The position numbers are program-made. A stretch of DNA of 64,000 bases from Escherichia coli (GTDB lineage Bacteria; Pseudomonadota; Gammaproteobacteria; Enterobacterales; Enterobacteriaceae). This document shows positions 47,601 to 50,600 of the stretch, in pieces; the first letter of the stretch is position 1; every line of letters starts with the position of its first letter. The stretch lies in assembly GCF_044324875.1 (NCBI RefSeq), contig NZ_CP172185.1. One strand, written 5' to 3'.

Positions 47601-50600
47601 TTTGTTAAAACACCTTGCGGTCTGGCAACTGCAAGTGTCAAACAAGAAATCAAAAGGGGGTCCCAATGGGGAACGAAAAGAGCTTAGCGCACACCCGATG
47701 GAACTGTAAATATCACATAGTATTTGCGCCAAAATACCGAAGACAGGTGTTCTACAGAGAGAAGCGTAGAGCAATAGGCTGTATTTTGAGAAAGCTGTGT
47801 GAGTGGAAAAGTGTACGGATTCTGGAAGCTGAATGCTGTGCAGATCATATCCATATGCTTGTGGAGATCCCGCCCAAAATGAGCGTATCAGGCTTTATGG
47901 GATATCTGAAAGGGAAAAGCAGTCTGATGCTTTACGAGCAGTTTGGTGATTTGAAATTCAAATACAGGAACAGGGAGTTCTGGTGCAGAGGGTATTACGT
48001 CGATACGGTGGGTAAGAACACGGCGAAGATACAGGATTACATAAAGCACCAGCTTGAAGAGGATAAAATGGGAGAGCAGTTATCGATTCCCTATCCGGGC
48101 AGCCCGTTTACGGGCCGTAAGTAACGAAGTTGGATGCAAATGTCAGATCGTGTGCGCCTGTTAGGGCGCGGCTGGTAAGAGAGCCTTATAGGCGCATTTG
48201 AAAAACCTCCGGCTATGCCGGAGGATATTTATTATTGCGTAACCAGACGGCGCAGTCGCGACACATCCACCGTTTTTTCTGCCTCTGCCAGACTCCAGGC
48301 GTTTTGCAGATTCAGCCACATTTGCGGCGAACTGCCGATCACCACGGAAAGTTTAATTGCCATTTCTGGCGTCAAAGCTGCTTTTCCGGTCAGCAATCGG
48401 CTTGCCGTTGAGGGCGCAATTTCCATTGCTCTGGCAAACTCGCGCAGGCTGACATTAAGTTCGTCCAGTGATTCCTGAATAATGTCCCCCGGGCGGGGAT
48501 GATTGGCCATTTTCATCAGTGATAGTCCTCGTAATCCAGTATGTATGCATCGCCATTGACGAATTCAAATGTGATTCGCCAGTTGCCCGAGACAGATATC
48601 GCCCAAATTCCATCGCGATCACCGCTTAACGGGTGTAGTCGGTAACCGGGCATATCGATATCAGCAAGACAGCTTGCTGCATCAATCACAGCGAGTCGGT
48701 GGCGTAATCGTTTGACTTGCGTCGGTATAACGCCGGAGGTGTTGCCGAGAAGAAACAAGTCACGCAATCCCTTGTGTCTGAAATTCATTATCATCTCTTC
48801 ATCCTTGTTCCTTCAAAAGGAACACTATCACTATTGTTCCGTGCAGCGCAACAAATTTCGCTACGTTTTCGCGAATTGTGAGGGGAAAGATGGGGGAGGA
48901 AAAGAAGAAGAGTGAAATTGCGGAAAGCGTCTCGCAAAACAGGCTGCGACCCGAACATGGCAGTCGCAGCAAAGGCCTCTTAGCGGCGGAAATCAATCAC
49001 CATACGGCCACGGATTTTGCCTTCTTCCATCTCGGTAAAGATGGTGTTGATGTCCGCTAACGGACGCAGGGCGACTTTCGGCACCACTTTGCCTTCGGCC
49101 GCAAACTGGAAGGCTTCGGTTAGATCCTGGCGCGTGCCGACCAGCGAACCGACCACTTCAATACCATCCAGCACAAGGCGTGGGATGTCCAGGCTCATAG
49201 ACTCCGGCGGCAGACCGACAGCCACAACACGACCGCCTGCTCGTACAGCATCAACCGCCGAGTTAAACGCAGCTTTAGCTACCGCTGTCACCACCGCGGC
49301 GTGAGCGCCACCGGTTTTTTCTTGCACAATTTTGGCGGCGTCTTCGGTGCGTGAGTTAATCGCTAAATCTGCACCCATTTCGGTTGCCAGTTTCAACTGC
49401 TCATCATTGACATCAATGGCGATCACTTTGGCGTTAAAGACATTCTTCGCGTATTGCAGGGCGAGGTTACCCAGACCGCCAAGACCGTAGATAGCAATCC
49501 ACTGCCCTGGACGAATTTTTGACAGCTTAACGGCTTTGTAGGTGGTGACCCCCGCACAGGTAATGCTGCTGGCCGCCGCCGAGTCCAGACCATCTGGCAC
49601 TTTTACCGCGTAATCGGCGACCACGATGCACTCTTCCGCCATCCCGCCATCAACGCTGTATCCGGCATTTTTAACTGAACGGCAGAGCGTTTCGTTACCA
49701 CTGTTACAGTATTCGCAATGACCGCATCCTTCGTAAAACCACGCCACGCTGGCACGATCGCCTGGTTTTAATGAGGTGACACCTGGGCCAACTTCTGCCA
49801 CCACACCGATGCCTTCATGGCCCAGAATTACGCCGGTTTTGTCACCAAAATCGCCATTCTTAACATGAAGATCGGTGTGACATACACCACAACACTCCAT
49901 TTTCAGCAGGGCTTCGCCATGTTTCAGTGAGCGCAGTGTTTTATCCGTAACGTCAACATGATGATCCTTCGTAACAACTGCAGCCTTCATAGTTCCTCCT
50001 TTTCGGATGATGTTCTGCATAGCAGGTGAGGCAAATGAGATTTATTCGCCACTACCCAGTATGGATGAGATCTGAAAAAGGGAGAGGGAAATTGCCCGGT
50101 AGCCTTCACTACCGGGCGCAGGCTTAGATGGAGGTACGGCGGTAGTCGCGGTATTCGGCCTGCCAGAAATTATCATCAATGGCCTGTTGCAGAGCTTCGG
50201 CGGAGGTTTTCACCGCCACGCCTTGCTGCTGCGCCATTTTGCCAACCGCAAAGGCAATTGCGCGGGAGACTTTCTGAATATCTTTCAGTTCCGGTAGTAC
50301 CAGACCTTCGCCGTTCAGGACCAGCGGCGAATACTGAGCAAGCGTTTCACTTGCCGACATCAGCATCTCATCGGTGATACGTGACGCGCCGGAAGCAATA
50401 ACGCCCAGCCCGATGCCCGGGAAAATAAAGGCGTTGTTACACTGGGCGATAGGGTAGATTTTATCTTTCCATACCACTGGGTTAAACGGACTGCCAGTGG
50501 CGACCAGCGCGTTACCTTCAGTCCAGGCGATAATGTCCTGCGGTGTGGCTTCCACGCGTGAAGTCGGGTTAGACAGCGGCATCACGATCGGACGCGGACA

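Follow-up and report, generated by a model that had tools for sequence, protein, structure and literature searches.

The stretch of DNA described here, which we call the window, comprises 64,000 nucleotides of the Escherichia coli contig NZ_CP172185.1 (RefSeq assembly GCF_044324875.1), and the element in question is a pair of small minus-strand genes at 48232-48794, higB and higA, the latter corresponding to yddM of K-12. We consider this pair, with good confidence, to be a canonical chromosomal type II toxin-antitoxin (TA) operon of the HigBA (Rts1) kind. The structure of the genes, the family membership of their products, the fold, the conservation of the catalytic residues, the purifying selection and the conservation of upstream palindromes are all matters of observation and are presented below. 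A preliminary description, made from the sequence before any database was searched, had put forward an intact HigB/HigA-like pair next to adhP, and had named alignment to the HigB and HigA families as one way to check it.

Gene pair, protein families and toxin fold

The toxin gene higB (48516..48794) encodes a protein of 92 amino acids, with MIMNFRHKGLRDLFLLGNTSG at the N-terminus and ILDYEDYH at the C-terminus, which is identical to RefSeq entry WP_001559131.1. It is followed by higA (48232..48516), which encodes a helix-turn-helix (HTH) protein of the XRE type of 94 amino acids, ending in LVTQ and identical to WP_000781370.1, a putative antitoxin and autorepressor. Both genes start with ATG and both frames are open on the minus strand, as judged from the list of open reading frames (ORFs) and the raw sequence. 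The TGA stop codon of higB (48518..48516) and the ATG of higA (48516..48514) have base 48516 in common, within the sequence TGATG. The coordinates and protein lengths given in the preliminary description, the overlap of exactly one nucleotide, the toxin-first order typical of higBA (48794..48516, then 48516..48232) and the absence of any interruption in either ORF all agree with what the ORF list and raw sequence contain. By its gene order, with the toxin upstream, and by its coupled TGATG arrangement, the pair is a HigBA operon. A putative ribosome-binding region of higB is found at 48795..48806 on the minus strand (AAGGA, 7 nt, then ATG), and a Shine-Dalgarno-like GAGGA precedes the ATG of higA by 9 nt.

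The HigB protein matches the PFAM model HigB-like_toxin (PF05015) at 2.7e-17, over model positions 2-91 of 91, and in a phmmer search it recovered the HigB chains of PDB entries 4MCT, 4PX8 and 4W4G with an E-value of 1.2e-31. Aligned with the HigB of Proteus vulgaris/Rts1, 52 of the 92 residues are identical (56.5%), without gaps and in the same numbering. The preliminary description had singled out the catalytic residues as the point at which an alignment could speak against a functional toxin, and all of these are conserved: His54, Asn71, Arg73, Asp90, Tyr91 and His92 of Rts1 HigB are each found at the same number in the window protein. The same six are invariant in 24 homologs (57-97% identity), and the window HigB retains every one of the 23 invariant columns (23/23). 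Schureck et al. (PMC5027501) found that toxicity and mRNA cleavage by Rts1 HigB depend on His54, Asp90, Tyr91 and His92, which are essential in vivo as well as in vitro; Arg73 makes a further contribution, and Asn71 has a part in shaping the third-nucleotide pocket.

An AlphaFold2 model of the toxin, built on the alignment of homologs, has a mean predicted local distance difference test (pLDDT) score of 93.5. In a Foldseek comparison this predicted structure superposed on the 70S-bound HigB (4W4G, chain QY) with a template-modelling (TM) score of 0.96 and a root-mean-square deviation (rmsd) of 0.9 Å, while the next families, RelE, YafQ and YoeB, reached TM scores of 0.6-0.7. Judging from sequence and model together, the toxin is an Rts1-type HigB with the RelE/microbial RNase fold, and the resemblance to Rts1-type HigB that had been proposed is thereby borne out. 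These comparisons bear equally on the function implied by the name 'ParE-2', which the toxin carries in the catalogue of adherent-invasive E. coli (AIEC) NRG857c and CFT073, namely that of a gyrase poison. Such a function would be in line with the conserved-domain label 'ParE_toxin superfamily' given in PMC7232551 and with the generic RefSeq name 'RelE/ParE family toxin', but PFAM returns HigB-like_toxin and no ParE family match, the identity to the Rts1 RNase is high and its catalytic residues are present, and the model fits the ParE2 structures with a TM score of only ~0.47 (rmsd ~6 Å). We therefore regard a gyrase-poisoning activity as hardly credible; as far as family and fold can tell, the 'ParE' label is functionally wrong, and the protein belongs to the mRNA-cleaving HigB type.

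At one position the window toxin has the less common residue. Position 18 is Asn (codon AAC, 48741..48743), as in the identical protein of strain GN25 (WP_001559131.1), while the other Escherichia copies that we examined have Lys (AAA), which is the commoner form. Considering that K, N, Q, R, V, S, D and T are all found at this position across the family, an effect of the substitution is unlikely.

HigA carries the PFAM domain HTH_3 in its N-terminal part (residues 14-65, 5e-9) and scores 93.7 bits against TIGR02607 (antidote_HigA), a curated equivalog model with a cut-off of 47.7. Over its 94 amino acids it is 100% identical to the 'antitoxin HigA' of PDB entries 2ICP and 2ICT (E-value 1.2e-56 for 2ICP), which a later paper assigns to E. 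coli CFT073, and also 100% identical to YddM of K-12 (b1477). Furthermore, it aligns with the HigA of Rts1 over 81 residues (E-value ~1e-18). The 94-residue HTH antitoxin of the preliminary description has thus been recovered by domain, curated family and crystal structure, and the family alignments proposed as a check favour the assignment for both proteins. Given the PFAM and PDB matches of the toxin and the TIGR02607 and PDB matches of the antitoxin, the two ORFs are, on sequence grounds, not chance frames.

The activities of the two proteins can be proposed by analogy with the Rts1 system. Toxicity, cleavage specificity and neutralisation would then take the following form. A promoter just 5' of higB would give rise to a bicistronic higB-higA mRNA, on which the translation of the two genes would be coupled via the TGATG overlap. 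HigB, a small RNase of the RelE fold, would enter the A site of the ribosome and cut the mRNA there, with a preference for A-rich codons; His54 would serve as the general base, Arg73 would stabilise the transition state and Tyr91 would act as the general acid, with Asp90 and His92 in support. HigA/YddM, presumably a dimer with its HTH at the N-terminus, would bind and neutralise HigB, as suggested by the Rts1 HigB-HigA complexes 4MCT and 4MCX, to which both proteins align. It would also repress the operon by binding to GGAACA/TGTTCC palindromes that cover the -10 region. Depletion of HigA would leave HigB free, and translation and growth would come to a stop.

Candidate promoter and operators

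Between adhP and higB lies a conserved block that reads TTGTTGCG-N6-GGAACA-ATAGTGATAG-TGTTCC-TTTTGAA-GGAACA, with the core pattern GGAACA-N10-TGTTCC-N7-GGAACA. We propose that this block (48806..48854, minus strand) contains the higBA promoter and its operators. The candidate -35 area is TTGTTGCG (48854..48847), and TTGCGC is located 16-18 nt upstream of a -10-like GATAGT/TAGTGT. The latter is covered by a first palindrome, GGAACA-N10-TGTTCC (48840..48819), present as GGAACAATA-GTGA-TAGTGTTCC, which is overlapped by a second, TGTTCCTT-TTG-AAGGAACA (48824..48806). A motif of the form GGAACA-N8-11-TGTTCC occurs once in the window, against an expected 0.01 occurrences. The core is retained in E. 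marmotae, Citrobacter rodentium, C. farmeri and the toxin-less E. coli alleles, while the flanking 5' sequence diverges; in the O104:H4 allele the first GGAACA is GCAACA. The assignment of promoter and operators, and with it the choice of the palindrome that would be bound, is inferred from this conservation and from the example of Rts1. The identical YddM of K-12 is known to bind DNA in vivo, which fits a repressor role for HigA.

The only sigma-70 consensus match, at 48816..48787, was considered as the operon promoter and rejected, as its -10 hexamer coincides with the start codon of higB. Matches in the promoter scan were no more frequent than in shuffled sequence.

As had been reported, the pair is located next to adhP (48980..50020, minus strand), the end of which is 185 nt upstream of the higB start. 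Directly after the adhP stop codon there is a hairpin, GCTGCGAC-N12-GTCGCAGC (48943..48970, minus strand), that is kept in the alleles of K-12, O157 and O104. It probably serves as the terminator of adhP, and as such would separate adhP from higBA. On the opposite side of the pair the fdnGHI genes are found on the plus strand. The names adhP and fdnGHI follow RefSeq, as annotated at matching loci of E. coli.

Distribution, selection and the toxin-less alleles

Nearly all complete E. coli genomes match the region (5412 of 5426), but a coverage of at least 80%, and with it the toxin, is seen in only 1328 (24%); the count rests on this coverage and not on the intactness of the ORFs in each genome. 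The other ~75% lack higB and retain yddM. K-12, O157 and O104:H4 all have yddM, then 145-146 bp, and then adhP (2790..2934 in the K-12 MC4100 locus), and HS likewise has the antitoxin only. That most complete genomes, K-12 included, have yddM without the toxin makes the remark in the preliminary description, that both frames are intact 'here', an apt one. In the toxin-less alleles the adhP hairpin is still present, as is the promoter/operator core, and a short remnant, now diverged, is left beside the yddM start; through the deletion, yddM has thus come to lie immediately downstream of the conserved control region. These alleles were compared by pairwise global alignment with cheap gap extension and by an alignment of the promoter only, in which the diverged remnant blurs the exact deletion junction.

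The complete pair is syntenic in E. marmotae, C. rodentium and C. farmeri, where it lies between fdnI and adhP or maeA (at 3001..3563 in each). In Citrobacter, a gene of the inorganic pyrophosphatase family separates higA from fdnI, and adhP does not occur at that position; C. farmeri has in addition a gene for an ABC-F-like ATPase between maeA and higB. Compared to the syntenic Citrobacter copies, higB has a ratio of nonsynonymous to synonymous substitution rates (dN/dS) of 0.04-0.07 and higA one of 0.03-0.04; dS is saturated in these comparisons. The value for E. marmotae (1.17) derives from five differences only and is uninformative. The GC content of the locus is host-like. In the plasmid database, 532 of the 535 matching records were below 60% identity and three were at 90-99%. 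Recent transfer by plasmid was considered and set aside; the sole near-identical record that was inspected (98.9%) is a 4.9-Mb chromosome filed as a plasmid. Given the synteny, the low dN/dS, the host-like GC content and the outcome of the plasmid comparison, the complete pair is probably the ancestral state and the loss of the toxin derived.

The antitoxin has remained constant after the loss of its partner. The YddM proteins of the toxin-less alleles (K-12 MC4100, O104:H4 and O157-type) are identical or nearly identical to that of the complete pair; those of K-12 and O104:H4 are identical, with no nonsynonymous against 4-6 synonymous differences, which indicates purifying selection on the orphan antitoxin. 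This raises the question whether the complete locus has itself been domesticated, such that HigB in vivo is attenuated or effectively silent and what mainly maintains the locus is the action of YddM/HigA as a transcription factor of other genes; the pair would then no longer serve as an addiction or stress module. The deletion of higB in around three quarters of the complete genomes, with YddM and the promoter/operator core retained, would fit such a scenario, and so would the binding of DNA by the identical K-12 YddM, which PMC6237786 describes as confirmed by ChIP-exo; there, YddM is among the factors analyzed for binding motifs, and the motifs found are reported to be palindromic. A silent toxin is expected to decay, however, while higB is under strong purifying selection relative to Citrobacter and its product retains every catalytic and family-invariant residue. 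We consider domestication of the complete locus unlikely.

Defence against phage is a known function of some type II TA systems. The variable presence of the toxin among strains resembles the pattern of defence genes, and one could therefore imagine that the main role of the pair is abortive infection, triggered when a phage shuts off host transcription, rather than a stress response or the stabilisation of the locus. Against this stand the position of the locus among core metabolic genes, fixed across genera and outside any defence island or mobile element, and its host-like GC content. In addition, none of the PADLOC families matched the toxin, and the antitoxin gave weak matches only (best E-value 6.7e-5), in the HTH region and to models of candidate systems. 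A role mainly in phage defence thus seems very improbable.

The assignment of a canonical HigBA operon has to be weighed against several findings that do not favour it. At the level of the protein, Lys57 and Arg48 of Rts1 HigB are replaced in the pairwise alignment by Ser and Met, respectively; the toxicity of Rts1 HigB survives single alanine substitutions at either position (PMC5027501). No NCBIfam model matched the toxin, which is why its RefSeq name stays generic; a curated model is lacking, and the missing match does not speak against its belonging to the HigB family. At the level of the control region, the consensus promoter scan did not select the proposed TTGTTGCG...GATAGT promoter. 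The GGAACA half-site is unrelated to the TATTACA half-site of the Rts1 operators, and the half-sites of the two candidate palindromes are of opposite polarity, so that a dimer with a single binding mode could recognise only one of them; for both reasons the operator assignment is uncertain. The toxin is moreover dispensable, as most E. coli have lost it. Finally, we found no published experimental test of this toxin in the literature, and a 2024 review states that these pairs 'remain to be characterized'.

A more far-reaching reading of the same data concerns the history of the locus. The higBA pair between fdnI and adhP may be an old, vertically inherited TA pair of Escherichia and Citrobacter rather than a recent mobile acquisition, from which the toxin was excised in most E. 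coli, with antitoxin and operator kept unchanged under purifying selection and with the orphan YddM having a selected function of its own, be it anti-addiction immunity versus this HigB lineage or that of a domesticated transcription factor. We put this forward tentatively, as a possibility that falls well short of being the expected outcome. If true, E. coli would provide a natural presence/absence series with which to study the purpose of a chromosomal TA pair.

Directly after the yddM stop codon of this strain there is a complete IS200C insertion sequence of ~715 bp (47517..48231, plus strand), shared with strain JNE23-011 and absent from GN25, K-12, O157 and O104. It comprises tnpA (47666..48124, plus strand; NF033573, 145.9 bits) and the Hfq-binding 5'-untranslated-region RNA STnc490 (47533..47656, 146 bits), and its left end forms the hairpin CCCCCAGC-TAG-GCTGGGGG. 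The right-end hairpin, CCTCCGGC-ATA-GCCGGAGG, is followed by TTTTT (48206..48224 on the minus strand) and resembles a strong intrinsic terminator, 7 nt past the higA stop codon. It was recovered in the terminator scan, folds at -19.3 kcal/mol (z = -4.1) and is absent from the IS-free loci. In this strain, the higBA transcript probably ends at a terminator that IS200C provides. The element parts yddM from what appears to be the native hairpin shared with the convergent fdnI, AATGGCGCTTTATAAAGCGCCATT (~47485..47508). Between fdnI and IS200C, palindromes resembling repetitive extragenic palindromes or bacterial interspersed mosaic elements (REP/BIME) are present at 47360..47470, with sub-threshold Rfam scores of 31.5 bits for naRNA4 and 30.1 bits for ES036. 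A further Rfam match, to Ysr202 at 48201..48305, scored 29.5 bits, where the gathering score is 315, and was dismissed as fragmentary.

Relation to known systems

As a predicted system, the pair has been described before. The RefSeq annotation at the locus reads 'type II toxin-antitoxin system RelE/ParE family toxin' and 'yddM: HigA family addiction module antitoxin', the exact toxin protein is annotated in strain GN25, and TADB lists the pair as higBA (TA027334). A study of AIEC (2020, PMC7232551) described it in NRG857c as TA20, 'ParE-2/HigA-2', with genes of 279 and 285 bp that share one base and have the toxin first; the toxin was found to be common to NRG857c and CFT073, while HS and K-12 had the antitoxin only at the locus. 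The structure of the antitoxin has been solved and the activity of the toxin is predicted. The feature is thus an ordinary member of a well-studied family that has been annotated and catalogued before, and functional work on it would be incremental for the TA field. What is new here is the distribution of the pair, its synteny and selection, the conserved control core in the toxin-less alleles, the position of IS200C and the correction of the published label from 'ParE' to HigB, that is, from a gyrase poison to a toxin predicted to cut mRNA. There is some small practical value in the confirmation that a TA locus which varies among E. coli is complete in this strain, in having precise coordinates for its probable operator, and in the link to K-12 YddM, which is identical to the crystallised HigA and is still listed as a putative regulator. 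The remaining interest lies in the predicted activity of the toxin and in the natural series of strains with either the whole pair or the conserved orphan antitoxin.

The closest relative is the CFT073 HigA/K-12 YddM/TA20 locus itself: the position, the flanking genes, the gene order, the 279- and 285-bp sizes and the overlap are the same, and the antitoxin is 100% identical. The window differs from it in the Asn18 variant of HigB and in the IS200C directly after the yddM stop. A CFT073 ΔhigBA mutant was reported by Norton and Mulvey to have no defect in colonisation of the urinary tract, and in their study the CFT073 TA loci are syntenic with the K-12 counterparts. We considered this knock-out as a source of data on the pair and rejected it: even at a tolerance of 3 mismatches, the window contains neither of the 40-nt homology arms used for the deletion, so that a different locus was targeted and the result has no bearing on this pair. 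The K-12 system that is likewise called HigB-HigA (YgjN-YgjM) has the toxin-first order and a RelE-family toxin in common with it, but is found at a different locus, the fadH-rlmG intergenic region, and the HTH of YgjM is C-terminal whereas that of the window HigA is N-terminal.

The best characterized counterpart is HigB-HigA of Rts1 (P. vulgaris; PDB 4MCT/4MCX, 4PX8, 4W4G and 9CHL/9CHN). The two systems have in common the toxin-first order, the TGATG-type overlap of one nucleotide (seen in the IncT plasmid copy), a toxin of 92 amino acids with the same catalytic residues and fold, an antitoxin with an N-terminal HTH, and palindromes of ~19-22 bp placed over the promoter, which in the window is a candidate one. 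They differ in that the window pair is chromosomal and fixed between fdnI and adhP, whereas the Rts1 pair is plasmid-borne, and in the length of HigA, which is 94 amino acids here and 104 in Rts1. The HigA of Rts1 binds as a dimer to two operators, both palindromic, which overlap the -35 and -10 sites and are each protected over 21 nucleotides; as read in an IncT plasmid copy, they are the 19-bp palindromes TATTGCACATCGTGTAATA and TATTACACACCATGTAATA. Their half-sites, TATTACA/TGTAATA, bear no relation to the GGAACA/TGTTCC of the window, and while O1 and O2 of Rts1 are separate, the candidate palindromes described here overlap and share a half-site.

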